Source: a virus (taxonomy: Duplodnaviria > Caudoviricetes). From it: a stretch of 56,237 nucleotides of DNA. A program made the translations under genes and the position numbers. Shown piece after piece: positions 1 to 25,811 of this stretch (the first letter of the stretch is position 1; each line of letters starts with the position of its first letter). The notes beneath the pieces were generated by a model, which had not been told where the DNA came from, ran no database searches, and saw only the letters and a program-made list of their open reading frames with translations. Location of the stretch: positions 1 through 56,237 of IMG/VR virus record IMGVR_UViG_3300032462_000007. One strand, 5' to 3'.

Positions 1-71
1 TTTTATTCTTGGGTTTTAATTATTTCTCTTGTAGGAATGATTTATTTACTTTCAACAAAATACACAGACTA

Positions 72-107
72 AAAATTCTTGAGGTGCTAGCAACGCCTCA
101 AGATTTT
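72..107 (+). terminator. Hairpin, probable intrinsic terminator, immediately before the first GC box
   Basis: AAAATTCTTGAGGTG / CGCCTCAAGATTTT imperfect inverted repeat. Confidence 0.55.
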
Positions 108-223
108 AGCCGCGCCCCCCAGCTTCCGATTCTTTTAAGATAGTTAAGAGATCCCTCTGGCTTTCCCTGAAAAATGTTAGACCACTGTGCTATGATGAAA
201 TCATAACCTACTAAGGAGTTAAA

Positions 224-301
224 ATGCCAGACTTTGATGATGTCAATCCCTTCTATGATAATAATGACTACGACCTAACAGACCCGAACGAGGGGGAATG
301 A
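224..301 (+). CDS. 25-aa acidic peptide MPDFDDVNPFYDNNDYDLTDPNEGE
   Basis: AAGGAG RBS, own promoter at 175-196, stop codon abuts the next GC box. Confidence 0.55.
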   Translation: MPDFDDVNPFYDNNDYDLTDPNEGE

Positions 302-457
302 GCCGCGCCCCGATCTCGTTACTAATCCGTTATAAGAAACACCCATTATTTCCCCTAAATTGTCAGACCCTTCTGATAAGATAATCTTATGTTGAAAGGA
401 ATTAAATTGAAATTATTACCTACTAAAAAGTCCCAACCGTATTTATCTAGAGGTGCT

Positions 458-655
458 ATGCAATTTCGTATCTATGAGATTGCTAAGATTGTAAATCTTG
501 ATTCAAAAGATGTAAGAAATTATTGTGAGTTAGTTGGCTTACCTTCAAAATCTGCTAGCAATAGTGTTTCTTATCTTGAGGGTTTAACTGTCATAGCAAG
601 GTTGAAAGAGTTAAAAAAAGATTTTGCACCTATTTATGTCAAGTCCCCCTTTTAA
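458..655 (+). CDS. Stand-alone IF2 N-terminal-domain-like protein (65 aa)
   Basis: RIYEIAKIVNLDSKDVRNYCELVGLPSKSASNSV resembles the IF2_N pattern RVYELAKELG..SKE...LG..VKS.SS.L; GAGG RBS before ATG 458 (track ORF starts at 389). Confidence 0.6.
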   Translation: MQFRIYEIAKIVNLDSKDVRNYCELVGLPSKSASNSVSYLEGLTVIARLKELKKDFAPIYVKSPF

Positions 656-713
656 AACTGTCAGACCTATCTGATAGAATAATCTTATACCTACAAAAGA
701 AAGTTAGCCAAGA

Positions 714-1436
714 ATGACTAAACTCAAACGCTCAAAAGACCGCAAGGTCGCCAACCTTGTAACGCCCAACGGCAAGCAGGCAAGTATCGCTAATTCCTTT
801 GGATTGCCCGCAGGTAAAGAATTCTCCTGCCCTAGTGCTACAAGCGTATGTGAAAAAATTTGCTATGCAGGGAAATTAGAAAAAGTCTTTCCAAGTGTTA
901 GAGAAACAATTACACACAATTGGGATTTGCTTAGAAATGCTAATCAAGATGAAATGTATTTATTGTTATCTGAAATGATTGCAGAATTTCTTGGTGATTG
1001 TGATAGGCGTAATGCTGAAAAGTTATTTCGTATTCATTGGGACGGTGACTTTTTTAACGAGGATTATACATTAGCGTGGAAAAGGGTTATTCTTGATTAC
1101 CCCGAAATTAAATTTTGGGTTTATACTCGGGTAGCAAACTCTGCACTAATTCTAAAAGACATTAGCAACTTATCGCTTTATTTTAGTACTGACTCTGAAA
1201 ATTCTGAAATAGGAAAGACTTTACTAAAAGATGAGGGCATAAAATTAGCCTACCTAGCAGAAACTTTTGCTATTGGAAAAGCACACCTAGCAGAAATTGT
1301 TAAAAAGACCGCTACCCGTTGCCCAGAAAATAATAAAGCCCTACCGCTTATTTCAACTAAGGGTAGTGCCTGTGCCGTATGTCGCTTATGTATTGACGGT
1401 AAAAATAGCGTTTTATTCTCGTCAAGTAAAAAATAA
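714..1436 (+). CDS. GP88-like Cys-rich phage protein (radical-SAM-related, probably Fe-S binding)
   Basis: SFGLPAG..CP....CEKICYA, RIHWDGDF, WVYTR and C-terminal CP...CAVCRLC motifs. Confidence 0.7.
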   Translation: MTKLKRSKDRKVANLVTPNGKQASIANSFGLPAGKEFSCPSATSVCEKICYAGKLEKVFPSVRETITHNWDLLRNANQDEMYLLLSEMIAEFLGDCDRRNAEKLFRIHWDGDFFNEDYTLAWKRVILDYPEIKFWVYTRVANSALILKDISNLSLYFSTDSENSEIGKTLLKDEGIKLAYLAETFAIGKAHLAEIVKKTATRCPENNKALPLISTKGSACAVCRLCIDGKNSVLFSSSKK

Positions 1437-1461
1437 TTAACTCACAACAAAAGGAAATTAA

Positions 1462-1608
1462 ATGGCTAACTTTGTTTTATTCATAATGGGATTTATTTTT
1501 ATAGGAATTCCAATTTTATTTATTGTAATGGGTGCAGGTGTCGCTATTCAAAATGTAAAGATTGAAGACGAATATTTAGATAGTGCAGGAATGATTGACG
1601 GAAAATAA
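1462..1608 (+). CDS. Small membrane protein (48 aa)
   Basis: AAGGA RBS; hydrophobic MANFVLFIMGFIFIGIPILFIVMGAGVAI. Confidence 0.6.
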   Translation: MANFVLFIMGFIFIGIPILFIVMGAGVAIQNVKIEDEYLDSAGMIDGK

Positions 1609-1616
1609 ATTAATAT

Positions 1617-1690
1617 CCCCAATTAGCTCAGCTGGATAGAGCAACAAACTTCTAATTTGTAGGCCGCTGGTTCGAATCCAGCATTGGGGG
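1617..1690 (+). tRNA. tRNA-Arg (anticodon TCT), no encoded CCA
   Basis: Acceptor CCCCAAT/ATTGGGG, anticodon arm ACAAA-CT-TCT-AA-TTTGT, T arm GCTGG-TTCGAAT-CCAGC. Confidence 0.92.
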
Positions 1691-1782
1691 CCGCGCCCCG
1701 TTACCAAATTGTTATTTAAGAAGGTTAAGAGATCACCCTGATTTCCCCTAAAATTGTCACACCTCTGTGGTAAGATAAATCT

Positions 1783-1917
1783 ATGATGAAATTTGTTGCC
1801 ACCCCTGAACAACTTCGAGCAAGGCTTGAGTTGCGTAGGAGTAATGCGTCAGCAAAACACATAAATAAAAAGAAATACACAAGAACTCAAAAACACAAAT
1901 ACCTACAAGGAGAATAA
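1783..1917 (+). CDS. Small basic protein (44 aa), leaderless
   Basis: MMKFVATPEQLRARLELRRSNASAKHINKKKYTRTQKHKYLQGE; ATG 6 nt after TAAGAT. Confidence 0.65.
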   Translation: MMKFVATPEQLRARLELRRSNASAKHINKKKYTRTQKHKYLQGE

Positions 1918-1918
1918 A

Positions 1919-2212
1919 ATGGGAATGATGAAAGCACTTGCTTATGGAGAATTAGACTTAACCCTTGAGACTCAACTGCAATTACACTTTGTTAGTAACT
2001 GCTACCCACCAGTACCACTACTAATGATTCCAGTTGCGGTGGACGCTATTTACGCATACAGCGATGAGGACTATTTCAGAATGGTTGAATTGCCTTCTGG
2101 TGTTGAATTTAGAAACGGTGAAAAAGAAGTTTCAGCCGCCCAGATCGTTGAGTCTCTTAGACTTGATGCTTTCGTAATGGGTGACGGCTATGACTATGAC
2201 GTTGAATTATAA
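1919..2212 (+). CDS. Hypothetical phage protein
   Basis: AAGGAG RBS, 97-aa ORF, LHF..NCYPPVP motif. Confidence 0.75.
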   Translation: MGMMKALAYGELDLTLETQLQLHFVSNCYPPVPLLMIPVAVDAIYAYSDEDYFRMVELPSGVEFRNGEKEVSAAQIVESLRLDAFVMGDGYDYDVEL

Positions 2213-2266
2213 AACTGTCACACCTCTATGCTAAGATAAAATCCTACCTACAAGAAATGAGAAAAA

Positions 2267-2506
2267 ATGTTTACATTAAATAACCCAATGAAAGTGATGA
2301 GTGATCATTATTCCGTCACCTCACAGCCTTGCCCTTATTGCAAGGATACCAAGACAGTAGCGATTAGTTCTAAAAAATTATTTGATTATAGAAATGGTGG
2401 AAACGTTCAAGATGTCTTAAGTAATTTTGATGCAAGTATTCGTGAAAGATTTATTTCAGGTGTTTGCAACCCTTGTTGGAATAATTTTTTTGCAGATGAG
2501 GATTAA
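2267..2506 (+). CDS. Small zinc-finger protein
   Basis: CPYC...RERFISGVCNPCW; own promoter at 2216. Confidence 0.7.
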   Translation: MFTLNNPMKVMSDHYSVTSQPCPYCKDTKTVAISSKKLFDYRNGGNVQDVLSNFDASIRERFISGVCNPCWNNFFADED

Positions 2507-2507
2507 A

Positions 2508-2780
2508 ATGCAAATAGAACTATTAGATATAAATTCAACTGGAAATTATTTAGTTGAAACTGCAAGTGGAACTGTCTACCTTTTAAATATGGACGAGAAG
2601 ACTGGTACACGATACCCTGATGAAGATGCAGGAGAACTTTGGGCTGACGGTGAGCCGTGGGTGTTTGACTATATATTTTGTGAGTTAAAAAATTCAATGA
2701 TGTTTGACATTCCAAAAGGTGAGGGTGAATACACTTGGCGTACATCTACTTATGTTACAAAGATAACACCTACAAGATAA
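2508..2780 (+). CDS. Hypothetical protein (likely start MQIELL)
   Basis: GAGG RBS before ATG 2508, 2 nt after the previous stop. Confidence 0.65.
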   Translation: MQIELLDINSTGNYLVETASGTVYLLNMDEKTGTRYPDEDAGELWADGEPWVFDYIFCELKNSMMFDIPKGEGEYTWRTSTYVTKITPTR

Positions 2781-2935
2781 GGGACGGAAGTAAACCCCCT
2801 CCAGATTCGGAAGCTGGCCGCGCCCCGTTACCAAATTGTCATTTAAGATAGTTAAGAAAAGCCCCTGAATAGTGCCAAAATTGTCAGACCCTTATGGTAT
2901 AGTAAAACTATAACCTGCTAAGAAATGAGATAATA

Positions 2936-3085
2936 ATGGAAACAAAGAAAAATCTAACAGATGTGCTAAGGGAATTTCACCCTGACGGTATGTTCAACGA
3001 ACAACAACTATGGGAAGCCATAGCAGAAGCAGACGGACACGAAAGAGACTACTACGAAGACGGAGATTTGGCGGAATGGCTATGA
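2936..3085 (+). CDS. Small acidic protein (49 aa)
   Basis: METKKNLTDVLREFHPDGMFNEQQLWEAIAEADG...; follows the promoter at 2882; ATGA overlap with the next gene. Confidence 0.65.
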   Translation: METKKNLTDVLREFHPDGMFNEQQLWEAIAEADGHERDYYEDGDLAEWL

Positions 3086-3309
3086 GAGTAGATGCTTTAA
3101 TAAAACAATTACAAGATAATTATAAAGATAGTGATGAATTAATTGTTACCTATTGGGATAAAGAATGGGTAGCGGCTTTTGTTAGAGATAAAGATTTAGT
3201 TGATGAAATTTATCAGTCGGTATTAGATGAATTTGAAGACTTTGAAACTACCTTTGGAAATCAGTTAATGAATTTTGTAGATGAGTTAGCAGGTAGATTT
3301 TATGAGTAA
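3082..3309 (+). CDS. Hypothetical acidic protein (starts MRVDAL)
   Basis: ATGA coupling to the upstream gene. Confidence 0.65.
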   Translation: MRVDALIKQLQDNYKDSDELIVTYWDKEWVAAFVRDKDLVDEIYQSVLDEFEDFETTFGNQLMNFVDELAGRFYE

Positions 3310-3439
3310 AGAGGGAGTTCACATAGAACTTAAAGAGGGAGACCTGTTTGCAGATGTAATAAATGAAGATTGGTTTGAAAATGCAAGCAATGAAGAAATG
3401 CAAAGAGTCTTAGATATTTTGATTGGGGCGGGCTACTAA
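3302..3439 (+). CDS. Small protein (45 aa)
   Basis: MSKEGVHIELKEGDLFADVINEDWFE...; overlaps the upstream stop and ends 2 nt before the GC box. Confidence 0.55.
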   Translation: MSKEGVHIELKEGDLFADVINEDWFENASNEEMQRVLDILIGAGY

Positions 3440-3473
3440 GAGCCGCGCCCCCCAGGAATAAAGCTTTTAAGAA

Positions 3474-3489
3474 TGTGACGTAGATCACC
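3474..3489. promoter_or_regulatory. CRP/GlxR-type site
   Basis: TGTGA-CGTAGA-TCACC, 9/10 match to TGTGA-N6-TCACA, upstream of a consensus promoter. Confidence 0.55.
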
Positions 3490-3509
3490 TTGAATATTGG
3501 CGAATGGAT

Positions 3510-3538
3510 TTGACATTTGCCCCAAAAAGTGCTAAGAT
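3510..3538 (+). promoter_or_regulatory. SigA-type promoter
   Basis: TTGACA-N17-TAAGAT with extended TG. Confidence 0.85.
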
Positions 3539-3586
3539 AGTACTATAAATAAGGGAATAATCCCAAGAAAAGAAAAGGAAGCAATT

Positions 3587-3742
3587 ATGGCAAAATCAAC
3601 TGCCCCGACTGTTGGCTCACAGTTCGTAACCACTAAGTCAAAGGTAAAGGGAGAAGTTATGGAAGTTATCAAAAACTCAAATGGCTCTTTCCGTATCCGC
3701 CTTGACGTAAATGGTCAAGACCGTTGGACTACTGCTAAGTAG
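3587..3742 (+). CDS. Small beta-rich basic protein (51 aa)
   Basis: AAGGA RBS; MAKSTAPTVGSQFVTTKSKVKGEVMEVIKNSNGSFRIRLDVNGQDRWTTAK. Confidence 0.75.
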   Translation: MAKSTAPTVGSQFVTTKSKVKGEVMEVIKNSNGSFRIRLDVNGQDRWTTAK

Positions 3743-3754
3743 TTAAACAGACAT

Positions 3755-3829
3755 AATCTGGTGTCTAAGCCGTGTTCCTTTATAGGGTGTGTTGGACGAA
3801 GCACAAACGGCTAGGAGTCCCACCAGATT
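3755..3829 (+). ncRNA. Candidate structured RNA (multi-stem, possible pseudoknot)
   Basis: AATCTGGTG/CACCAGATT closing stem, AGCCGT/ACGGCT inner stem, TGTGTT/AGCACA hairpin whose loop GGAC can pair with GTCC. Confidence 0.5.
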
Positions 3830-3886
3830 TTTGTCAGACCCTTATGATAGAATAAACTTAATAAACCTACTAACAAAGGAAATACA

Positions 3887-4366
3887 ATGGGATTAGACCA
3901 GTATCTAAAAGGTGAAATTTACATCTCACAAGACCGATACAAAGACGGGACTCATTCAGACAATCCTGAATACAAAATTATTTCATCATTATTTGGATTG
4001 AAAGATTTAGTAAGTAAAGATAGTCACGCTGGAATTGAAATTACATTTCCTGTCGGCTATTGGCGTAAGGCAAATCAAATTCATAATTGGTTTGTTCAAA
4101 ACATTCAAAACGGTAATGATAATTGTGGTAATTATTATGTGTCAAGAGAAAACTTAGAAACACTAAAAGGTTTATGTGTTGAAGTCTTATCTAAAAAAGA
4201 CTATGATACCGCTAAGGAACTATTGCCAAATGGTGAGGGTTTCTTCTTTGGGGGAACGGGCTTTGACGAATGGTATTTTGAAAGTGTTGAAAAGACTATC
4301 GAGATACTTTCAAGATGTTTAGAAATGCCTGCTGAAGTTAGTTTTGAATACCAATCAAGTTGGTAA
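3887..4366 (+). CDS. Conserved phage protein (MGLD...YWRKANQIH.WF family)
   Basis: MGLDQYL, YWRKANQIHNWF, GFFFG and YQSSW motifs. Confidence 0.8.
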   Translation: MGLDQYLKGEIYISQDRYKDGTHSDNPEYKIISSLFGLKDLVSKDSHAGIEITFPVGYWRKANQIHNWFVQNIQNGNDNCGNYYVSRENLETLKGLCVEVLSKKDYDTAKELLPNGEGFFFGGTGFDEWYFESVEKTIEILSRCLEMPAEVSFEYQSSW

Positions 4367-4376
4367 TAGCCCTTAA

Positions 4377-4404
4377 ACAATCTGAGTAAATTGTAAAACT
4401 GCTC
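4377..4404 (+). ncRNA. Compact pseudoknot motif, copy 1
   Basis: ACAAT-CTGAGTAA-ATTGT-AAAAC-TGCTC. Confidence 0.55.
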
Positions 4405-4410
4405 ACACTT

Positions 4411-4487
4411 GGTGTAGTGGTGCAATTGGTTAGCATATCTCCCTGTCGAGGAGAGGGTTGCGAGTTCGAGCCTCGCCTACACCGCCA
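4411..4487 (+). tRNA. tRNA-Asp (GTC) with encoded CCA
   Basis: GGTGTAG/CTACACC acceptor, TCTCC-CT-GTC-GA-GGAGA anticodon arm, GCCA end. Confidence 0.92.
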
Positions 4488-4604
4488 GCTTTTTGGCCGC
4501 GCCCCGTTACCCAACCGTTATTTAAGAAGGATCATAAATCCCCCTAAAATGTCAGACCTCTATGGTATGATGAAATCATAACCTACTAATGAAAGAAGTA
4601 TAAA

Positions 4605-5360
4605 ATGCCTAATTGGGTGTATAACTCTTTAGCCGTATCTGGTGATAAAGAAGAATTAACAAAATTAGTTAATAAGATGAATAAGCCTTATGAGGCTAAT
4701 CATTGGCAGTATAACAAAATGGGAGAGTATGTAGAAGAAACTACAATTTATTCAAATCCCGTTTTTTCTTTTAGAAACATTATCTGTCCAACAAATTTAG
4801 ACTCTTACAACACCAAGCCAGAATTTAATAAGCCAACAGGGAATGTTGTGGCAGATTTAATGGAGGGAATTAGAACTGGTGAAGATTGGTATAATTGGAA
4901 CTTACGCAACTGGGGAACTAAATGGGACGTTTCAGTTGCAGACGATTTCGAGTATTCAGATACGTCAATGGAACAGCAATCTGAAACTGATTTAATTTAT
5001 TATTTCAATACTGCTTGGAGTCCTGTTGATAGTGGTATGCTAATTCTATTATCAGAAGAATTTCCAACTCTTGAAATGGAATACCATTGGGAAGAAGAAC
5101 AAGGTTGGGGTGGCGAAGCCGACATTTCTGACGGTGGCTTTATAGTCACTAAAGAATGGGACATTCCAGAATCACACGCAGATAATTTAGCGGTTCGTGA
5201 TTATTGCCATAACTGTGAGAGTATGGAAATCTTAGACCTTAAGACAGCAACAGAGAAAGAATTAAAAGGGTCGTTAGAAGATATTTATTCTGACTGCCCA
5301 CCATTTGCCGAGTACAAAGAAGTACTTGACAAATTACAACTGCCTACAGAAAAAGGATAA
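4605..5360 (+). CDS. DUF1281/YubB ferredoxin-like domain protein
   Basis: MPNW..N, DWYNWN..NWGTKWD, FNTAWSP and EEEQGWGG motifs. Confidence 0.75.
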   Translation: MPNWVYNSLAVSGDKEELTKLVNKMNKPYEANHWQYNKMGEYVEETTIYSNPVFSFRNIICPTNLDSYNTKPEFNKPTGNVVADLMEGIRTGEDWYNWNLRNWGTKWDVSVADDFEYSDTSMEQQSETDLIYYFNTAWSPVDSGMLILLSEEFPTLEMEYHWEEEQGWGGEADISDGGFIVTKEWDIPESHADNLAVRDYCHNCESMEILDLKTATEKELKGSLEDIYSDCPPFAEYKEVLDKLQLPTEKG

Positions 5361-5365
5361 AAAAA

Positions 5366-5821
5366 ATGGAACTTTCAACAACAACAGTAGAACCAGAAAT
5401 TCTGGAGTATGTAGAAAATGCAAGTATTGTTTTAATAGATACGCCTTATGTTTATAGCACTACTAAGACAGAATTATTTACAGCAAACGAATTATCTTTT
5501 ATAGTCCGTGACCAAAAACGGGTAAATTTAGTTCTTGCTGGTCGTCATAAAGATACTGAATTACTCAAAGAATACCTCATAGAAAACTATGAGGAAATTG
5601 GGGAAGACCACGCTGTTGCTATTGCAGAAATAATGGAAATTGACTTAACAACAGAACACGAAGTAACTTTAAATCTCTCAATTACTGCAACCCTAACACT
5701 ACCAATGGGTAAGACACCAGATGACTATTCAACTTATGATTTTGATGTTGAATTATCTGCAAATGATTCTGAAATTGAAATTCAATACTTTGATTCAAAC
5801 ATAGATAGTATGGATTATTAA
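5366..5821 (+). CDS. Hypothetical acidic protein
   Basis: AAGGA RBS, 151-aa ORF. Confidence 0.75.
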   Translation: MELSTTTVEPEILEYVENASIVLIDTPYVYSTTKTELFTANELSFIVRDQKRVNLVLAGRHKDTELLKEYLIENYEEIGEDHAVAIAEIMEIDLTTEHEVTLNLSITATLTLPMGKTPDDYSTYDFDVELSANDSEIEIQYFDSNIDSMDY

Positions 5822-5844
5822 AGTGTCCTTTAGTAGGTAGAGGA

Positions 5845-5872
5845 GATTCCTGGGTATGAATTAAAACTGCCC
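5845..5872 (+). ncRNA. Compact pseudoknot motif, copy 2
   Basis: GATTC-CTGGGTAT-GAATT-AAAAC-TGCCC. Confidence 0.55.
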
Positions 5873-5966
5873 CCATAAAATTGATCCAGCTCTTTTGAGC
5901 CGCGCCCCCGTTACCCAATCGTTATTTAAGAAGATTGAGAAATCCCCCTAGATATATATAATAAAC

Positions 5967-5995
5967 TTGACAAACACCCCAAAATATGATAAGAT
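5967..5995 (+). promoter_or_regulatory. SigA-type promoter
   Basis: TTGACA-N17-TAAGAT with extended TG. Confidence 0.85.
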
Positions 5996-6034
5996 AAACT
6001 TATTAAACAATCTACCTTATAGGAGAAAATAAAA

Positions 6035-7024
6035 ATGGCTGATAACATAGAAATTATAAATGGTGTTGGGTCTTTCTATTCCCTGCGTGAACCTGCTTGG
6101 CATGGTTTGGGCACAGTAGTAAATGATGAACACACTACAAAAGAAGTTTTAGGAATTGCAAATCTATCTAATTGGAATGTTAGATTAGAGGACATTGTTC
6201 TACCTAAAAACTACACAACAAGCAAATCTAATTACATGGTTGTTCGTGACCACCCAGAAACTGGACAGCCAGACGTGCTATCCATTGTTGGTGACCGCTA
6301 CCAAACTTTGCAGAATGAAGAATTGTTTGCTTTTGCAGATAACTTACTTGACGGGGCTCGTTGGGAAACAGCAGGTTCATTAAAGAATGGACGAGTTGTA
6401 TTTGGCTCTCTTGCTCTTGAGCGTGAGACCGTACTTGACCCAACAGGTGTTGCAGATGTAGTAAATACTTACTTACTTGTAAATACCTCACACGATGGCT
6501 CGGTTGCAGTTCAGGCAAGCATTACACCTGTTCGTGTTGTATGTTCAAATACTCTTAATCTTGCTCTGCAAGGCGTTAAGCAGTCTTTCAAAATGCGACA
6601 CACCTCAACACTTGACGGACGTATTCTAATGGCTCGTGAGGCTCTGGGGCTTGCAAACACCTACATGGACGAGTTTGACAAAATGGCACAAGAACTTATT
6701 GAACAAGAAATCACTAAGTCTACTTTTGCTAAGATTGTTGCAACTGCTTACCCAATGCCTAATTTGGAAACAAAAGGTGCTATGACAAAATGGGAGAACA
6801 AAATTGAATTGCTTGATGAGATTTTTTCATCAGATACAAATGCAATGATTAACAATACCGCTTGGGGTGCTTTCAATACCCTGACAGAACGCCTTGACTG
6901 GTATCGTCCTGCACGAGGTGGGAACAACGAGGGTATCCTCGCAAGTGCAAGTGGCTTCGACCCTGTAATAAATGCAGAAAAGAATAGACTGCTAAGCATT
7001 GTGCGACAGGTTGCTTTTGCATAA
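6035..7024 (+). CDS. DUF932 family phage/plasmid protein (TIGR03299-like)
   Basis: PAWHGLG, Y..LQN, ETAGSL..G, NTSHDGS, TPVRVVCSNT, RHT and TAWGAFN motifs. Confidence 0.85.
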   Translation: MADNIEIINGVGSFYSLREPAWHGLGTVVNDEHTTKEVLGIANLSNWNVRLEDIVLPKNYTTSKSNYMVVRDHPETGQPDVLSIVGDRYQTLQNEELFAFADNLLDGARWETAGSLKNGRVVFGSLALERETVLDPTGVADVVNTYLLVNTSHDGSVAVQASITPVRVVCSNTLNLALQGVKQSFKMRHTSTLDGRILMAREALGLANTYMDEFDKMAQELIEQEITKSTFAKIVATAYPMPNLETKGAMTKWENKIELLDEIFSSDTNAMINNTAWGAFNTLTERLDWYRPARGGNNEGILASASGFDPVINAEKNRLLSIVRQVAFA

Positions 7025-7034
7025 ATAAAAATAT

Positions 7035-7138
7035 TCCACCTGAGCAAGTGGATACTAAAATAAACTACTCACTCCCCACTGACACGGGAGTCTAATCAAA
7101 AGGTGACTAAGCCCTGAGCATGGCAGTGGAAAAGGCTC
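7035..7138 (+). ncRNA. Cluster of three small RNA structures (pseudoknot copies 3 and 4 flanking a different hairpin)
   Basis: TCCAC-CTGAGCAA-GTGGA...AAAC-TACTC; ACTCCC-CACTGACAC-GGGAGT; GCC-CTGAGCAT-GGC...GCTC. Confidence 0.5.
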
Positions 7139-7324
7139 ACTTTTTGCACCGCGCCACTAATTATCTTATTAGTCATTTAAGAACAATTAAGAGCAGCTCT
7201 GGATTTCTCTGGATCAATCAATCTTATTAGATTAAAAATGTTTATTAAGTAATATGCCAAATGCCCTTGAAATTGTCAGACCCTTGTGGTAGGATACAAG
7301 TATCTACTAAGAAATGGAAAATAT

Positions 7325-7588
7325 ATGACATCTTTAACTACAAGATTTGAAGTTGTATTTGACGAGGACTTTATTATAAAGTCTATGTTGGAAACAGGAG
7401 AATATGGAATTGGTGGCTACCCGATTTCCGAGGAGGCAATGATTGAGTTTGTAAAAAATATATCATTTGGACTTGACCACGAAGCAAATTTTGAGGACGA
7501 GTACCCTGGGCAATCCAAGTCCCTGTCTATAACGAATGACAATGGAGATTGTTATTTCTATTGGGCAAAAGATCAGCAGGTAAACTGA
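7325..7588 (+). CDS. Hypothetical protein (likely start MTSLTT)
   Basis: Downstream of the promoter at 7274-7295; the track start 7286 lies inside that promoter. Confidence 0.6.
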   Translation: MTSLTTRFEVVFDEDFIIKSMLETGEYGIGGYPISEEAMIEFVKNISFGLDHEANFEDEYPGQSKSLSITNDNGDCYFYWAKDQQVN

Positions 7589-7840
7589 CAATGAATAAAG
7601 AATTAGACTATTTATTTAATTCAGATGAAGATGACACCGTTAGTTTTGATTGGGGAACTCAACCAATATTAGTTGTTGGCAAAACCAAGAAGCAAATCTG
7701 GAATGAAAAGAAAAACAAATTTGAATGGAAAGAGGTAAAGAAGTGATTACAGTAAAATATGGGAAATATAAATATATGTGTGACTATGGACATGGCAGTG
7801 ATAGAGATGAAGATAGTTTGATTAGATATTTCTGTGGCAA

Positions 7841-8125
7841 GTGTATACAACTAACAATGAACAAGAAGGGGAAGTAATGGAACTAGTAACAGCATCAACC
7901 TATGACTTAGTTGCAACCTATCAAATTGAAGCAGAAGCAACATACTCTATGATAGTAGATTTTGATGAACTTAATGAATATATTGCTGCTTATAAATTAA
8001 ATATAAATGGTGAGGTAGATAGAATTCAGATTTATGAACATTTCCTGGAAAAATACGGGTATGAAGAATGTTCAGACTCACAAGACCTACGCAGAACTAT
8101 TGAAGAAGTAGAGGTATACCGATAA
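7841..8125 (+). CDS. Hypothetical acidic protein
   Basis: ORF in a tightly packed + strand operon. Confidence 0.6.
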   Translation: MYTTNNEQEGEVMELVTASTYDLVATYQIEAEATYSMIVDFDELNEYIAAYKLNINGEVDRIQIYEHFLEKYGYEECSDSQDLRRTIEEVEVYR

Positions 8126-8316
8126 TGTATATGTATAACTACACAGTAGAGTTCGTATTAGAAAGTGCAGTCATTCTTACACACCTATCTTTTGATGAGC
8201 CAGATCAGCCTCACGATGTTGTAATCGAAGAAGCCCGTCAGAACTTGATTAAAGACTACAAGATTGACCCAGAAGTTTTATACCTACAAGACACAATTGT
8301 GCATGAGGAGAACTAA
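8125..8316 (+). CDS. Hypothetical protein
   Basis: TAATG coupling, GAGG RBS. Confidence 0.65.
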   Translation: MYMYNYTVEFVLESAVILTHLSFDEPDQPHDVVIEEARQNLIKDYKIDPEVLYLQDTIVHEEN

Positions 8317-8384
8317 TGACATTAGTACTGGAAGTTATGACCTGCAAGACTGAGAACTATCTAATGCCTCTGGAGGTAAGTTAA

Positions 8385-8819
8385 GTGATTGATTTATCAG
8401 ATGTAGTTATTGACTATGTAATGGCTATTCCCACCTCCTGCCAGGCTCCAGAGTTCTATATTGGTCCGAATGGGTTCGAAGTATATGCAACCGTCTCTAA
8501 GGGCGACAGAGAAATCAACGTGGCTTGTAATGGAGAGATGTACTTAACCGTGCCCAACATTTATAGTGACGGACTATTAGTAGATACTGATAATATCATT
8601 AGATACCCTTCAGACCTCCATGAATATGGTATAGATGATGATATCCGATTGAACCAGTTTATTAAAACAGTTAGTAATGCTGGCTTTCAGGTATGCCACG
8701 AAAATCCTTGGTGGGAGATATTCTCTGATAATGACCCTGACGGTATCATATGTGAGACATTCTATGGTGCTATTGATCAGGCAACCGAATTACTATTCGA
8801 TGAGGAGTATTGGGCATGA
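8385..8819 (+). CDS. Hypothetical acidic protein
   Basis: GGAGGT RBS, GTG start. Confidence 0.7.
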   Translation: MIDLSDVVIDYVMAIPTSCQAPEFYIGPNGFEVYATVSKGDREINVACNGEMYLTVPNIYSDGLLVDTDNIIRYPSDLHEYGIDDDIRLNQFIKTVSNAGFQVCHENPWWEIFSDNDPDGIICETFYGAIDQATELLFDEEYWA

Positions 8820-9028
8820 ACTTAAATCACTATGATGTCTTTGACCATATTCTACCAAATTGTTTAGAAGCTGGGGACATAATTAAATGGGAAGGGGAAG
8901 TCTATACAGTTAAGGACTTTGATATGCTATCTGATGGTTTTATGATATATGCCATAGATGAAATGGAAGAAGCAGTAGAACTACTAATACCCGATGATAC
9001 CGTACTTTCATTAATGGAAGAACAATAG
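8816..9028 (+). CDS. Small acidic protein
   Basis: GAGGAG RBS, ATGA overlap with the upstream gene. Confidence 0.65.
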   Translation: MNLNHYDVFDHILPNCLEAGDIIKWEGEVYTVKDFDMLSDGFMIYAIDEMEEAVELLIPDDTVLSLMEEQ

Positions 9029-9030
9029 GA

Positions 9031-9060
9031 TTTGACAATTCTGTCAAAATAGTGTAAAAT
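9031..9060 (+). promoter_or_regulatory. SigA promoter overlapped by a palindrome
   Basis: TTGACA-N17-TAAAAT; TTTGACA-ATTC-TGTCAAA inverted repeat covers the -35. Confidence 0.7.
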
Positions 9061-9321
9061 TGATACAAGACAACCTTCAGGAGAAAAATGACAAGAGAAA
9101 CACTACGCAAGTTAAAGAAACAACGATACACCTCATTAGAAAAATGGGGAGAGACTGATCGTGTGGTTATCCGAGACGGCTTAGGTCATTTCGTATACAA
9201 CACCAACCTAACTTCATTACGCCGCAACAAGGTAATGCGTTCCCGCTAACCAGGCATACAGGTGGGCAGGGAGATCCTCTGCCCCCTAAATGTCAGACCT
9301 CTATGATAGAATGAGAGAACT

Positions 9322-9564
9322 ATGGGAAAATCACAAATAGAAAGCATTTCAAACAAAATCGTTGCACTTTTAGCAGACGGTAGAATAAGTCAGGCGGATT
9401 GGAGAATTTGGATACCAAAACGATTGACAGAACATAATAAAATGATAGTTGCAAATGCAAAGAACTTAGCAGACGGAATAAACGAGGCATTGGAAAATGA
9501 CGAAATTGAAATTAGTAAAGAACTCTTATTCGATTACCAGACAGGAAAACAAAATGGACAATAG
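9322..9564 (+). CDS. Hypothetical protein
   Basis: Follows the promoter at 9291-9312. Confidence 0.65.
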   Translation: MGKSQIESISNKIVALLADGRISQADWRIWIPKRLTEHNKMIVANAKNLADGINEALENDEIEISKELLFDYQTGKQNGQ

Positions 9565-9832
9565 AGAAATGGGTAATGTTGAAAAAGCAGAAATCATTGT
9601 GCAATTTACTCAAGATGCTTTTAATGATGATTTGTATTCTGACTTTTTTGATTATAATGATTTAGGTGTACCACTTTCTATTGCTGTTCAGCAAGAAATG
9701 GTTATTCTAACTGATGCTGGAGAAGGAGTATTACAAGAAACTTGGAAAGAATTATGCACAATGTTTAATGCAGACCCAGAAAAAGAATATGAAAGTATTG
9801 ATGATTTAATGTTGCTAGAAGAATTAGAATAA
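9554..9832 (+). CDS. Hypothetical protein (YNDLGVPL motif; likely start MDNREM)
   Basis: AGGA RBS before ATG 9554. Confidence 0.65.
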   Translation: MDNREMGNVEKAEIIVQFTQDAFNDDLYSDFFDYNDLGVPLSIAVQQEMVILTDAGEGVLQETWKELCTMFNADPEKEYESIDDLMLLEELE

Positions 9833-9840
9833 AATTCTTG

Positions 9841-9915
9841 GGGGTGGTAGCTCAGTTGGTTTAGAGCAAATGACTCATAATCATTCGGTCGTCAGTTCAA
9901 GTCTGACCCACCCCA
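9841..9915 (+). tRNA. tRNA with CAT anticodon (Ile2-like or elongator Met)
   Basis: GGGGTGG/CCACCCC acceptor, AATGA-CT-CAT-AA-TCATT, GTCAG-TTCAAGT-CTGAC; lacks the initiator GGG/CCC anticodon stem. Confidence 0.9.
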
Positions 9916-10013
9916 CCTACAATGCCAAAAAAGACCGCGCCCACATTTTAAACATTCAACATTATTAAGAATAAGCCATTTTTCCCCTGGATATTTTGGG
10001 GAATATTAGATAT

Positions 10014-10042
10014 TTGACAAATAAAGACATAAGGAGTATAAT
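10014..10042 (+). promoter_or_regulatory. Perfect SigA promoter, leaderless transcript
   Basis: TTGACA-N17-TATAAT, ATG 6 nt later. Confidence 0.85.
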
Positions 10043-10048
10043 AGATAT

Positions 10049-10576
10049 ATGACCATTGTAATAGGGCTTATTCAAGAGGGTATTATATATATGGGATCAG
10101 ATAGAAGTATGAGTGATTTATATAGTATATCTTCTCCTATTACCCCGAAAATAAAAAAGAATGGTCAATTTTTAATTGGTTATGCATCTTCAAGAGGTAC
10201 TGGTCAAATAGCTCATTATATGGATTTTCCAAATGTTCTTAAAAAGGATGTTGATAAATATATGAGAACTGAATTTATATTTGCCCTTAAAAAAGAGATT
10301 GATAAATTTGGTTTAGATATATCAGATGATGATAAAGCTGCTGCAGATTTTCTGGTAGGAATTCATGGAAGACTATTTGATATCTCTACTAATGAATGGC
10401 AGGTAAATGAATATGATAAATATACTGCTATTGGAGCTGGTAGTTCATTTGCAATAGGTTCATTAGATACCTCAGAATCATGGAAAGATCCTGTTAAGAA
10501 AATAAAGAAAGCTTTAGATGTAGCTATTAATAACAATCCTAATTGTAAATATCCTATTGACATTTTACATTCATAG
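10049..10576 (+). CDS. Ntn-hydrolase, proteasome-beta/HslV-like peptidase
   Basis: N-terminal M-T-I-V-I-G nucleophile Thr, GSDR, AIGAGSSFAIGSL. Confidence 0.75.
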   Translation: MTIVIGLIQEGIIYMGSDRSMSDLYSISSPITPKIKKNGQFLIGYASSRGTGQIAHYMDFPNVLKKDVDKYMRTEFIFALKKEIDKFGLDISDDDKAAADFLVGIHGRLFDISTNEWQVNEYDKYTAIGAGSSFAIGSLDTSESWKDPVKKIKKALDVAINNNPNCKYPIDILHS

Positions 10577-12346: not shown

Positions 12347-12567
12347 ATTATAAAAGTCAGTTTGCCAGGCCATTACCTGTGGGAATATGTGCAACTGACA
12401 AACACATATTGCTAAAAAAATAGGAGGTTCTTAGTAGTATAACTATTGACGAGATAATTACTTGCTAGGATTTATCCTACAAAACTGCAACAGCCCCTTT
12501 ATGAATTCAGTGTGTCACACCTATCCAATAGTCTCCCTCTGGAGACGTTCGTGTTGATCAGTTTTAG

Positions 12568-15893: not shown

Positions 15894-17186
15894 TTATTTC
15901 CCCCTTATATTATTTTTTGTTGAAAGTCCAACGGCTATCTGTGCCACGATTACAGAAGCAACAACAACTTGCTGGGACTCTTTTCTTTTTTCTAGTGTCA
16001 TATCAACACCAATATTGGCAAGGGCTTTTATAGCTTTGCCTGGATCTGTAAAGACTGTTAGTAAAAGTTCTCCTGCGTCTTCAAATATTTCAATTGCATC
16101 AGCAACTTCAGCAGTAAGTATTACACCATTTTTCAACAGAACTGGTTGATCTGGCGGTAAATTTTCATAATCAAGTCCTGAATTTTCAAAATCCTCAAAA
16201 GAGATAGCATCCATTGAACCATATTTAGTCAAAAGTTCTTCAAGAGTTTGCTCTTTAGTTAGTTCATTATTTATGATATTATTATTAGATGAAGGAATTT
16301 CTATCTCAATTGGACCAGGAGTTATCGGGGTTGGAGTAGGTGAAGGCTCTGTCGGAAATTGTGAAGTTTGTGAGGGTTCTGGGCTTGGCTCTGATGGTTG
16401 GGGTGACGGCACTACTGTTGGCGCTGGTTCTGATTGTTGGGGTGACGGCACTACTGTTGGCGCTGGTTCTGATGATTGCTCTGTCTCAGGGATGGCAGTA
16501 GGAGTTGGAGTAGGCTCAATAGGGCAGGGAGACGGTTCATAGACTGTGCTACCATCCCAACACTGTATTGGAATAGCAGGAGGATCTGTAAAACTTGGAG
16601 ATGTTTGCTGAGGCTCCGCTTCTGTCGGTGTTCCACCGTTTACATCAAAGGCTGCTTCCATTGTTACGATAGGTCCGCCTTGTACATATCTAATGCCCCT
16701 TCTAATGTTGTTTGGTGTCCAACCAAGTGTTGTAATTTCTCCATGCCAAGATCCGTTGCTAAACTTATTAATAACCAGTCTAATTTGTGTTAGCTCACCA
16801 GTAGATTGTGGAAATGGGCGAACCGACCATTCAATACAAAATGAAGAATCGTTATATCCATACGAGGTATAAGCTCCTTCTCCGAAGGACACCCAGTCGT
16901 AACCAGCCAAGGACACAGATGGGGTTTCTGGATAGTCCCAGAATGTACCATCTGGCTGACCAAAAGTCATTGTTCCATTTGTACTATAATAAACTTGATT
17001 GTAATCAGTTTCACCCAATGTCAAACTAAATGGTAAATTCATTTGGAACGAACCATCGTCATCACCAGTTTGAGTAACCATGTTGCATGTGAGCGGGGTG
17101 CTTGCTTGCGTTGCTGGAACTACAAACAACAATATACTACCAAGTATCATTGGAATTAAAATTAGGTAGGAAGTTATTTTTTTCAA
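15894..17186 (-). CDS. Secreted/surface protein with beta-rich N domain, Pro-rich stalk and C-terminal hydrophobic anchor
   Basis: Signal peptide; GDDDGSF..NLPFSL...YYSTNGTMTFG (NIDO-like); P/T/S/E-rich linker; VVVASVIVAQIAVGL. Confidence 0.75.
   Translation of the reverse strand: MKKITSYLILIPMILGSILLFVVPATQASTPLTCNMVTQTGDDDGSFQMNLPFSLTLGETDYNQVYYSTNGTMTFGQPDGTFWDYPETPSVSLAGYDWVSFGEGAYTSYGYNDSSFCIEWSVRPFPQSTGELTQIRLVINKFSNGSWHGEITTLGWTPNNIRRGIRYVQGGPIVTMEAAFDVNGGTPTEAEPQQTSPSFTDPPAIPIQCWDGSTVYEPSPCPIEPTPTPTAIPETEQSSEPAPTVVPSPQQSEPAPTVVPSPQPSEPSPEPSQTSQFPTEPSPTPTPITPGPIEIEIPSSNNNIINNELTKEQTLEELLTKYGSMDAISFEDFENSGLDYENLPPDQPVLLKNGVILTAEVADAIEIFEDAGELLLTVFTDPGKAIKALANIGVDMTLEKRKESQQVVVASVIVAQIAVGLSTKNNIRGK
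16390..16474. repeat. 39-bp tandem duplication encoding SEPAPTVVPSPQ
   Basis: Units at 16397 and 16436. Confidence 0.85.
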
Positions 17187-22636: not shown

Positions 22637-22882
22637 CTACTTGTTAGGGTAGGTTATGTCGAGAATTGGGTCGAACGTTACTTGTGCTCCCAATTTCTCC
22701 AGTATTTCTCTTATACCCATCATATATTTTATGCGAGTAAGTCTTTCTGCATCAGACAAATGTCTCCAATGACTTTCATAGAATTGAATACCAAGGAATT
22801 TATCATAGTCAACTATATCCATATGAAAATCTGCAGGTGGTTTTATTGAATGTACCGCCTTTTTCATATTCGATGTATACAT
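22637..22882 (-). CDS. Hypothetical protein
   Basis: TAATG coupling to whiB. Confidence 0.7.
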   Translation of the reverse strand: MYTSNMKKAVHSIKPPADFHMDIVDYDKFLGIQFYESHWRHLSDAERLTRIKYMMGIREILEKLGAQVTFDPILDITYPNK

Positions 22883-23163
22883 TATTCTTTTTCCATTGTC
22901 ATTCCAGACCAGATATCAAACCAGTCTGTTTTTTCTTTATGACTATTAAATTCTTTAGATATCTTTCCGCCCTCTAAATAAACGCCGCCCCACACACCCC
23001 ACTCAGAATTACTAACTCCGTAAGCGAGGCACTGTCTTTGTGCTGGACAACTTATACATAATAGGTCTACTTTCTTTGAGACTTCCTTGTCTTCTTCATA
23101 TTGATCAAAAAACAAGTTGGTATCCATATTAAGACAGGATGCTTTTTCATCGAACTTGTACAT
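22882..23163 (-). CDS. whiB: WhiB-family transcription factor
   Basis: Four-Cys pattern (C, CxxC, C), LFF, GVWGG. Confidence 0.92.
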   Translation of the reverse strand: MYKFDEKASCLNMDTNLFFDQYEEDKEVSKKVDLLCISCPAQRQCLAYGVSNSEWGVWGGVYLEGGKISKEFNSHKEKTDWFDIWSGMTMEKE

Positions 23164-24436: not shown

Positions 24437-24796
24437 TTATTTTTGATTGTAACGACTTAAAATTGCTTCAAGAAAAAATCTTTCATCATCAGTAAAGGTA
24501 AGAATATTCTCTTGTATATAATCAATTTGTTCCAGCGTTACTGAGACAGAAGTCTCTCCCTCGGTAAAATCAACCTCAACTATGTCTTGCATCCAAAGAC
24601 CTTTTGCTATTTCACCCAGAGCTTCGTAGTGTGAGTAATAAAATTCTGGATACATCTCTTTACACTGTGGAGTTATCTGATAAGTAAATGTGTCCGATAT
24701 TGAATCATATCCAAAAATTTCTAGAGCCCCTAATTTAATTAAATGTTCAATAGTTTCTGACAATTCTTCCTCATAAAATTCTTCATTGTATTCCAT
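24437..24796 (-). CDS. Hypothetical acidic protein
   Basis: Overlaps the end of the IMPDH gene. Confidence 0.65.
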   Translation of the reverse strand: MEYNEEFYEEELSETIEHLIKLGALEIFGYDSISDTFTYQITPQCKEMYPEFYYSHYEALGEIAKGLWMQDIVEVDFTEGETSVSVTLEQIDYIQENILTFTDDERFFLEAILSRYNQK

Positions 24797-25811
24797 GTGG
24801 CATCGATTCTTTTACTGTCAATGGAGATACTCTAATATACATAGACTCTTGATATAAGTGAGACAAGGAGTCTACTCCAGAATAAGAACATCCACTTCCA
24901 AGACCACCCTTTATATCTTTAATGATATTAGCAACAGGACCTTTATGTGGAATCATTCCTGAAACTCCTTCTGCAACTGCAATATCTTTTGTTTTATTAG
25001 CTTCTTTGCTTGCCATACCTCTAAATGATTTATATTTTTTATTACCATTCATATATATAGACCCTGGAGATTCGTCTGTACCTGCCAGCATCGATCCAAG
25101 CATAACTGAGTCTGCTCCTGCTGCAAAAGCCTTGATCATATCTCCAGTATTGCGTATGCCACCATCAGCAACGATTCCAGCACTTAAGCTAAACTTATCT
25201 CTTGCCTGTCGGATGTTTATAATTGAAGACAGTGTTGGAACACCATGTCCTGACACAATCCTCGTTGTGCACATGCTGCCACCACCTATACCTACTCTAA
25301 TAGAGTCTGCGCCAGCATCGCTTAGTGCGAGATATCCTGCTACTGTAGAAACATTCCCAGACATGATAGATACACTATGTCCAACAACATCTTTTAGCCT
25401 TTTTGTTGCATCTATCACCATCTTACTATGACCATTAGCTGAATCAATTAGTAACAATGATGCCCCAGCATTTATAAGTTTTCTTACTTGCTCTTCAGTA
25501 AATGTAGATGAAATTGCTGCACCTACTGCAACAAGTCCTAATTCTGAAGCTTCTTCTACCATCGCAAGCTGTCTTTTAACAGACATAAATCTATGGATAA
25601 TTCCCATCCCTCCTGCGTATGCCATAGCAGATGCCATCTCAGTCTCACAAACGGTATCCATAGGGGACGCAATTACTGGAAAATCTAACCAGCAAGATCT
25701 TGCTACTAGCATTTTTAAATCAACAGAACTTCTACTAACAACTTCTGAATATTGAGGAACCATTAAGATATCATCAAAACAGATGTCATTATTTTCTAAG
25801 TATTCTTTCAA
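24783..25811 (-). CDS. guaB: IMP dehydrogenase/GMP reductase family, no CBS domains
   Basis: FDDILMVP, SPMDTV, GIIHR, GIGGGSMCTTR catalytic Cys, ADGGIR, FRGMAS. Confidence 0.9.
   Translation of the reverse strand: MKEYLENNDICFDDILMVPQYSEVVSRSSVDLKMLVARSCWLDFPVIASPMDTVCETEMASAMAYAGGMGIIHRFMSVKRQLAMVEEASELGLVAVGAAISSTFTEEQVRKLINAGASLLLIDSANGHSKMVIDATKRLKDVVGHSVSIMSGNVSTVAGYLALSDAGADSIRVGIGGGSMCTTRIVSGHGVPTLSSIINIRQARDKFSLSAGIVADGGIRNTGDMIKAFAAGADSVMLGSMLAGTDESPGSIYMNGNKKYKSFRGMASKEANKTKDIAVAEGVSGMIPHKGPVANIIKDIKGGLGSGCSYSGVDSLSHLYQESMYIRVSPLTVKESMPHGIQ

Follow-up and report, generated by a model that had tools for sequence, protein, structure and literature searches.

Ten predicted phage promoters with the box and spacing of host PafBC-dependent promoters

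Introduction

To our knowledge, PafBC is the sole described reader of a TGTC box at -26, and the promoters that depend on it are known to us solely from bacterial damage regulons. Their in vivo consensus, as PMC8635444 presents the motif, is the 22-nucleotide (nt) sequence tGTCgg(N10)tA(N3)T, whose 3' part is the SigA -10 hexamer and whose 5' part, the '-26 element', lies at -23 to -28; no -35 element figures in that account. The same account describes the GTC triplet as near-invariant across actinobacteria and as contacted by two PafB arginines, and it terms 'sigma adaptation' the insertion of PafBC between sigma domain 4 and the DNA. The activator is turned on by single-stranded DNA (ssDNA), according to what PMC11804915 says of its activation, and its amount is unaltered upon damage (PMC6789036). 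The other known activator acting at -26, SiwR, uses a 19-bp palindrome with GGA, as far as PMC10693628 outlines it. Here we describe ten predicted promoters in a stretch of viral DNA of 56,237 bases (IMG/VR record IMGVR_UViG_3300032462_000007), which we call the window. Their box and spacing are those of PafBC-dependent promoters, and the phage probably uses host PafBC to turn on one gene block.

Results

The pattern TGTYAS-N10-TAnnnT was scanned across the window, with the chance level taken from 100 shuffles. Twelve matches were found against a shuffle mean of 2.96 and a largest shuffle count of 8; none of the 100 shuffles reached 12. Ten of the matches lie on the plus strand between 175 and 9312 (Table 1), at exactly the coordinates that a first-pass annotation of this DNA had given, and the gap between the 6-nt box and the SigA-type TAnnnT is exactly 10 nt in all ten. 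That annotation had also described an extended TG without a -35 element, and rightly so: TG stands at -15/-14 in 10/10 sites, and the hexamers 17 nt 5' of the -10 (CTGAAA, CCCTAA, TTTAAA and others) are never TTGACA-like. GTC is kept as TGTCA(G/C) in nine of the ten; the exception is site 175, which has GTT, reads TGTTAG and is consequently missed by the stricter pattern TGTCASACC-N7-TAnnnT. The latter gives 10 forward, 0 reverse and 0 control matches in the window, namely the other nine sites and one at 12513. The full consensus is longer than the one first noted: an A-rich run, TGTCA(G/C)ACC (TGTTAGACC at 175), four variable nt and TG-n-TAnnAT or TG-n-TAnnGT, with an A at 7 nt past the -10 hexamer in 9/10 sites. 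Wherever the 9-mer occurs in the plus-strand arm, a -10 follows at the same distance. The remaining two matches, at 12513 and 43327, are on the plus strand inside the long arm of minus-strand genes and are probable chance matches; the one at 12513 is probably not a member of the promoter class.

How do these sites compare with described promoter classes? The first-pass annotation had drawn on a form of the PafBC consensus said to be that of Gamulin, which was not confirmed. The identity of geometry that it had claimed is nevertheless exact when the TGTCAG-N10-TAnnnT of the window is set against the consensus as given in PMC8635444. PafBC-dependent (RecA-NDp) promoters, such as the recA promoter in the cryo-electron microscopy complex of M. 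smegmatis RNA polymerase, SigA and PafBC, have the same TGTC(A/G)G at -28 to -23, the 10-nt gap, TAnnnT and no -35, and the identical extended box also stands before recA and radA in actinobacterial genomes. Unlike them, the phage sites belong to a lytic-type phage, are clustered on one strand (ten in 9 kb), have a box that is near-invariant over 11-14 nt, carry a TGn in 10/10 cases that is mostly absent at host sites, and would drive small uncharacterised genes instead of repair genes. With the middle promoters of phage T4 (MotA/AsiA, sigma appropriation) they share a normal -10, the lack of a -35 and a box for a stand-in of the sigma region 4 contact, and a passage of PMC8635444 itself draws the parallel between PafBC and MotA/AsiA. 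They differ from the T4 promoters in that the adaptor would be a host protein (no phage WYL gene was found; no search for MotA or AsiA was made) and in the box position at -26. Like the SiwR-dependent promoter of the M. smegmatis dinS operon, in the outline that PMC10693628 gives of it, the phage sites would employ a WYL activator through a -26 region beside a -10. A SiwR-type site was ruled out, because the SiwR box in that outline, a 19-bp imperfect palindrome with a conserved GGA, differs from the phage box, which is asymmetric and has TGTC. Compared with ordinary extended -10 promoters, which likewise have TG at -15/-14, TAnnnT and no -35, as seen at 10/10 sites here, the phage promoters add a second strictly conserved element at fixed spacing. 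Damage-coupled prophage switches operate through LexA or through RecA-cleaved repressors. Phage transcription would here too be tied to the host DNA-damage signal, but the link would be an ssDNA-sensing activator in place of a repressor that is lost. Phage promoters of this kind did not appear in the titles and abstracts of the papers listed on PafBC or RecA-NDp, on PafBC and phage, on freshwater actinophages, or on WYL and phage promoters; the box as a text string in full-text literature gave no relevant title among the matches listed.

The same box was sought in bacterial chromosomes, with organism names taken from record titles. A scan of 185,579 species genomes for the extended phage form (two A before the box, CC after it) returned 30 loci. 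Fourteen are in Actinomycetota: Ca. Planktophila (2), Rothia (3), Williamsia, Kibdelosporangium, Zimmermannella, Trebonia, an Acidimicrobiales metagenome-assembled genome (MAG) and four loci in other MAGs. Seven are in Myxococcales/Deltaproteobacteria MAGs, and the other nine comprise one in Pseudoalteromonas and eight on short or low-GC MAG contigs that mostly resemble binned phage DNA. In five actinobacterial genomes TGTCAGACC-N7-TAnnnT has 15, 9, 3, 1 and 1 matches against 0 for the pattern read backwards as the control; a gammaproteobacterial family examined as a negative control has 14 matches against 16 control matches in its 61 genomes and thus no enrichment. The loose TGTCRG-N10-TAnnnT, with whole-genome counts of, for example, 12 against 13 in the control, 10 against 21 and 29 against 41, is too weak at genome scale; the 9-nt box alone is informative.

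Which genes follow the host boxes? A Pfam scan of downstream open reading frames (ORFs) covered 20 of the 29 sites of the five genomes and 20 of the 30 loci of the extended-form scan, three sites being in both. Damage-type genes 3' of the box are recA, radA, two DUF222 genes (with or without HNH), a DnaQ-like exonuclease that also has GIY-YIG and, in Rothia, a HIRAN protein and a helicase-nuclease of 1,230-1,285 amino acids (aa). Six DNA methylases occupy this place in the Acidimicrobiales genome. Genes without an evident connection to DNA also follow the box (a luciferase-like oxidoreductase, an M48 peptidase, a deacetylase, a beta-lactamase-fold protein, PNPase and a 5'-nucleotidase), and several of the ORFs match no family. 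Upstream of recA, TGTC(A/G)G-N10-TAnnnT is present in all four genomes in which recA was found, one of them having TGTCAGACCCC in full; an SOS-box-like palindrome comes directly after the recA promoter motif in Ca. Planktophila. Most host sites lack TGn. In many host genes the ATG lies 6-10 nt past the hexamer, which fits leaderless transcripts and marks the hexamer as a functional -10.

Two further observations concern the bacterial records. Planktophila box sites (L164, L167 and L170 in G001; L163 in G002) share the same 3' sequence of about 40 nt, which at two of the G001 sites and at the G002 site is followed by a 198-aa ORF, the G002 copy having no Pfam family; this repeated, damage-linked unit is possibly mobile. 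Low-GC contigs in MAGs labelled Methylococcus and Bacteroidia (G084 contig C4, G085) carry several boxes against 0 in the control: one 55-kb contig has 3 boxes inside 6 kb, and six contigs of a single bin have 8 between them. They are most simply actinophage contigs put into the wrong bin.

A reader of the PafBC type is encoded in the actinobacterial genomes. An adjacent pair of WYL genes is present in 5/5 of them. The Planktophila pair matches the solved M. smegmatis proteins at E 2e-36 for PafB (with an identical RMFERDK stretch) and 8e-33 for PafC. The ORF adjoining this pair is presumably TatC-like, as recognised from its N-terminal residues alone. The Acidimicrobiales genome with 15 boxes has a single WYL pair only. 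By contrast with these hosts, the WYL profile PF13280 has no match at E<=1 in the window, which holds about 52% of its genome, and none at E<=0.1 in five motif-bearing phage genomes of 100, 85, 100, 92 and 100% completeness. A phage-borne PafBC was ruled out by this lack of a WYL domain in the window and the five genomes.

The promoter class extends well beyond the window. An IMG/VR scan with the box and TGnTAnnAT returned at least 120 stretches, and the viral counts come from loci fetched by a seed that already contains the motif. They hold at least 316 distinct TGTCAGACC-N7-TAnnnT sites in at least 119 viral loci; at least 79 of these loci carry more than one site, 25 in one case. A TAnnnT stands at the promoter offset of 310 of 317 boxes among the viral matches listed, a proportion biased by the seed. 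Over the 316 viral sites listed, the flanks of the box at -19 to -4 are unconserved, which supports the absence of a -35; A predominates at the three positions before the box and C at the two after ACC. In five large phage genomes the sites number 3, 3, 3, 10 and 3 against 0 in the control, on one strand and within 2-7 kb. The box is common to phage contigs of 35-50% GC whose flanks are otherwise unrelated, and a WhiB gene occurs in 6 of 12 motif-bearing records, including all four of those at least 90% complete. Another phage subgroup (L019, L020, L034, L035, L097; MAG contigs L144, L145, L151, L158) has an ATGTCCGAWTT-like element about 25-30 nt 5' of the TGTCAGACC box, which is absent from the window.

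Boxes also occur in genomes labelled as Myxococcota. Five MAGs labelled Myxococcales/Deltaproteobacteria (G071-G075; loci L133, L135, L153, L154, L159) have 11, 10, 7, 6 and 14 copies of TGTCAGACC-N7-TAnnnT against 0 in the control, and the scanned downstream genes include ssb, a RecA-like gene, ftsK and an IS200 transposase. Tandem WYL domains are present in 5/5, and in 4/5 both domains lie in a single frame of 651-781 aa. Taken together, this sequence evidence suggests a possible PafBC-type regulon outside Actinobacteria.

The window is a linear record of about 36% G+C with four tRNA genes, about 52% complete and thus about half of a genome of about 108 kb. Its first 10.6 kb consist of small plus-strand genes, among which GP88, DUF932 and an Api92-like domain are the families recognised. 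The rest lies on the minus strand and encodes a split DnaE-type polymerase, DnaB, a RecA/UvsX-like protein, terminase, tail proteins, a 2,402-aa tape-measure-like protein, WhiB, FtsZ, SSB, primase, a GMP-reductase-like enzyme and HNH nucleases. Its terminase shares 54-57% identity with that of Streptomyces phages of about 131 kb in Stanwilliamsviridae, and Gordonia phages match too; for the GP88 protein, identity to cluster-A-type mycobacteriophage proteins is 57%. Judged by these identities and by the WhiB gene, a family matched in our control set by Corynebacterium only, the phage is classed as an actinophage; the two ATG codons on a predicted +1 were counted alongside. The runs that contain the stretch are DNA runs from freshwater and estuary metagenomes, with no RNA run among them. 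M. smegmatis and Streptomyces, which the first-pass annotation had named as test organisms, are not the likely hosts, given that origin and the absence of the promoter class from cultured Streptomyces and Mycobacterium relatives. Megablast of positions 1-9600 against cultured phages gave a single match, to tRNA-Arg, and hence no close cultured phage at the DNA level; when the Atlas was searched with the GMP-reductase-like protein, most matches were viral clusters, which gave no clue to the host. Among the other phage genes are one of the FtsZ/tubulin family, one of the GMP-reductase/IMPDH family and one for an Fe-S assembly protein (at or near 15894-17186, and 24783-25811; the FtsZ position is approximate).

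An ORF begins within about 55 nt 3' of every box promoter. Seven sites precede a leader of 21-27 nt with a purine-rich ribosome site. The ORFs at 389-655 and 1783-1917 would be leaderless because their ATG falls exactly on the predicted +1, and a third ATG (9322) is 3 nt beyond it. Four perfect or near-perfect TTGACA-N17 promoters, which form a second class, are interspersed among the box promoters, and the immediate-early set might just as well consist of these four; an 'early' role of the arm is plausible from its gene content and position. A GC-rich 9-mer, CCGCGCCCC, occurs nine times (7 exact, 2 with one mismatch) against 0.58 by chance, always on the plus strand and in the first 10 kb. 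It heads a module of about 60 nt (GTTACC..., a TTAAGA-N3-TTAAGA direct repeat and a C-rich run) that lies upstream of both promoter classes, often after a stop codon, a tRNA or a terminator-like hairpin. The TTAAGA repeat is kept in relatives L011, L105 and L108.

Two features of the transcribed side were also noted. A leader element, (A)CCTAC(T/A)A, is found at about +8 to +20 of promoters 175, 659, 2216, 2882, 3832, 4550 and 7274, where it adjoins the ribosome site on its 5' side; it is also present in relatives L011, L105, L106 and L108 and is possibly a translation or RNA-stability signal. In addition, many -10 hexamers can pair, as the left half of a short inverted repeat, with a right half that lies over +1 to +8. 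At least six of seven bases are complementary in 28 of 294 viral sites (L009-L128, among the matches listed) against 8.6 +/- 2.8, at most 18, in 300 partner permutations, an excess that common descent of the sites may inflate. The repeat is present at four of the ten window sites (175, 361, 2882 and 4550), and the -10 as a hairpin arm was rejected as a general reading, a minority of sites fitting it.

Table 1. Predicted promoters and other elements of the window
Feature	Positions	Strand	Description
Promoter 1	175..196	+	variant TGTTAGACC (GTT for GTC), TGc TATGAT; predicted +1 203; 25-aa ORF 224-301
Promoter 2	361..382	+	TGTCAGACC-N4-TGa-TAAGAT; predicted +1 389 = A of ATG; 88-aa ORF 389-655, would be leaderless
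Promoter 3	659..680	+	TGTCAGACC-N4-TGa-TAGAAT; GP88-family gene 714-1436, small ORF, tRNA-Arg (1617-1692)
Promoter 4	1755..1776	+	TGTCACACC-N4-TGg-TAAGAT; ATG on predicted +1 1783; 44-aa ORF 1783-1917, would be leaderless
Promoter 5	2216..2237	+	TGTCACACC-N4-TGc-TAAGAT; ORFs 2267-2506, 2427-2780
Promoter 6	2882..2903	+	TGTCAGACC-N4-TGg-TATAGT; small ORFs 2936-3439
Promoter 7	3832..3853	+	TGTCAGACC-N4-TGa-TAGAAT; 159-aa ORF 3887-4366, then tRNA-Asp (4411-4487)
Promoter 8	4550..4571	+	TGTCAGACC-N4-TGg-TATGAT; 4605-5360 (DUF1281_C / Api92-like domain), 5366-5821
Promoter 9	7274..7295	+	TGTCAGACC-N4-TGg-TAGGAT; small ORFs 7325 to ~9028
Promoter 10	9291..9312	+	TGTCAGACC-N4-TGa-TAGAAT; ATG 9322, near-leaderless; then tRNA-Met (9841-9917)
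Isolated match	12513..12534	+	TGTCACACC-N7-TAGTCT, no TG; antisense to tRNA-Asn in minus-strand arm
Canonical promoter	3510..3538	+	TTGACA-17-TAAGAT; second promoter class
Canonical promoter	5967..5995	+	TTGACA-17-TAAGAT; before DUF932 gene 6035-7024
Canonical promoter	9032..9060	+	TTGACA-17-TAAAAT
Canonical promoter	10014..10042	+	TTGACA-17-TATAAT, 12/12 matches; before ORF 10049-10576
CCGCGCCCC sites	110-118, 303-311, 1691-1699, 2818-2826, 3443-3451, 4497-4505, 5900-5908, 7149-7157 (1 mismatch), 9935-9943 (1 mismatch)	+	
Upstream module 1	110..149	+	CCGCGCCCC 110-118, TTAAGA-N3-TTAAGA 135-149
Upstream module	1691..1730	+	CCGCGCCCC 1691-1699, TTAAGA-N3-TTAAGA 1716-1730; directly 3' of tRNA-Arg, before promoter 4
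Upstream module	2818..2857	+	before promoter 6
WhiB-family gene	22882..23160	-	marks actinobacterial host; candidate phage factor in a rival reading

Discussion

Based on these observations, we propose a model in which host RNA polymerase adapted by host PafBC would read the ten promoters while the extended -10 gives basal activity, and we regard this as fairly probable. A host factor is favoured because host damage regulons have the identical box and spacing, the hosts concerned encode pafBC and the phages have no WYL gene. The sites would serve the host housekeeping polymerase through a SigA-type -10 (TAnnnT) without a -35, and the '-26 element' of host PafBC, in the variant TGTCAGACC(C) and at -28 to -20, would take the place of the -35. 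Host PafBC, permanently present and turned on by ssDNA, would sit between sigma region 4 and the box and so let the polymerase fire. The TGn extended -10, which is missing at most host sites, would supply a basal, PafBC-independent level; it is the main structural difference from the host sites as far as the sequences go, and such basal firing is probable. The box class would serve solely the left-hand arm of the contig, where small genes and tRNAs lie on the plus strand. The phage might gain a ready activator triggered by the ssDNA of infection or replication, a coupling to host damage, or a titration of PafBC. The first-pass annotation had proposed that the arm is wired to the host damage sensor. 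The host-factor part of that proposal gains comparative support, with the box before recA and radA, pafBC present in the hosts and no phage WYL gene; for the PafBC link itself we infer binding, activation by binding and the time at which the arm is expressed. The sites, their geometry, the identity of their box with boxes of host damage regulons and the lack of a phage WYL gene were observed directly.

Several points weigh against PafBC as the reader. Extended -10 promoters can function without an activator, and TG stands at -15/-14 not only in all ten window sites but in 104 of the 118 listed viral sites that cannot themselves have served as seeds. Conservation of the box is far stricter at phage sites than at host sites, and site 175 has GTT in place of GTC. 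In the Planktophila family, the sole freshwater candidate family sampled, the box is sparse, with 12 of 61 genomes having it (17 matches against 3 in the control), and recA in this family carries a different tail after TGTCGG. The tails after TGTCRG vary by lineage (GTGG, ACC(CC), GGCC, AGCC), so another reader of the ACC subtype is possible, and in one family of five genomes two have 15-16 ACC boxes and three have none. The abundance of the box in the MAGs labelled Myxococcales/Deltaproteobacteria means that the box alone is not specific to Actinobacteria. Among the cultured relatives Starbow, Daubenski and Maminiaina, the looser pattern is not enriched (0, 2 and 2 matches against 0, 2 and 0 in the control).

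What else could account for the box? A phage-encoded protein of another kind than WYL might read it, as an activator, a shut-off repressor or a phage WhiB acting on sigma region 4, and the likeness to PafBC would then be mimicry or coincidence. We think this rather unlikely. It would suit the strict conservation over 11-14 nt in phages against looser host regulons, the WhiB gene in the window and in the four motif-bearing genomes that are at least 90% complete, and the TGn in 10/10 sites, which hints that an activator is not strictly needed; a site at -28 to -20 also suits repression. Yet it leaves unexplained why the identical box and spacing, with 0 control matches, precede recA, radA and similar genes in bacteria. 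In addition, WhiB is encoded on the opposite, minus-strand arm, and phage contigs that range from 35 to 50% GC and have otherwise unrelated flanks hold the box in common. Alternatively, the phages may exploit a host factor other than PafBC that is confined to some lineages and reads the TGTCAGACC subtype. The distinct TGTCRG tails, the family split between two and three genomes and the frequency of the box in Myxococcota-labelled MAGs all agree with such a factor. On the other side, recA has an ACC-type box in one genome and, at the same place, boxes of other types in three, which fits one drifting regulator; the 15-box genome has a single WYL pair, and double-WYL genes, tandem or fused, occur in the Myxococcota-labelled MAGs too. 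SiwR, in the description of PMC10693628, reads the GGA palindrome instead. We consider a separate host factor improbable.

The remaining alternatives concern the purpose of the box. PafBC might bind mainly to be titrated, with boxes on replicating DNA blunting the host damage and defence response while the extended -10 alone drives transcription. Ten near-optimal boxes in 9 kb and a TGn at every site accord with this, as does a link of PafBC to phage resistance (Rafique et al. 2025, as cited in a passage of PMC12848934), but every box stands at the exact promoter spacing before an ORF, which a pure decoy would not need, and related complete genomes have only 3 boxes; titration as the main purpose thus seems to us of low probability. 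That the sites are plain extended -10 promoters, with the box a passenger of duplicated promoter cassettes, is very improbable indeed. Several window sites do share long flanks, 175 and 4550 being identical 3' of the -10, and the upstream module is repeated. Against this, box and spacing are kept in at least 316 distinct sites whose flanks at -19 to -4 are unconserved, and the same box and spacing occur in bacterial chromosomes.

What are the implications of a PafBC-dependent promoter class in a phage? If the PafBC model is true, this would be, within the literature searched, the first case of a virus that relies on a host sigma-adapting activator instead of its own, and phage gene timing would be linked to ssDNA sensing. 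The box provides a sequence signature for promoter annotation in well over a hundred uncultured phage contigs, and together with WhiB it may help to assign such contigs to actinobacterial hosts; it also suggests the form of a high-affinity PafBC box, in that the phage version (the A-rich run and TGTCAGACCCC) would mark the optimal PafBC site. The box and the double-WYL genes in the Myxococcota-labelled genomes would carry PafBC-type regulation beyond Actinobacteria. More tentatively, a large group of uncultured freshwater actinophages with genomes of about 100 kb may have built a promoter class on PafBC, with their own incoming or replicating DNA as the inducer. If so, a constitutive host damage sensor would become the infection-triggered switch of the phage, and sigma adaptation would be put to use by a virus without an adaptor gene of its own.

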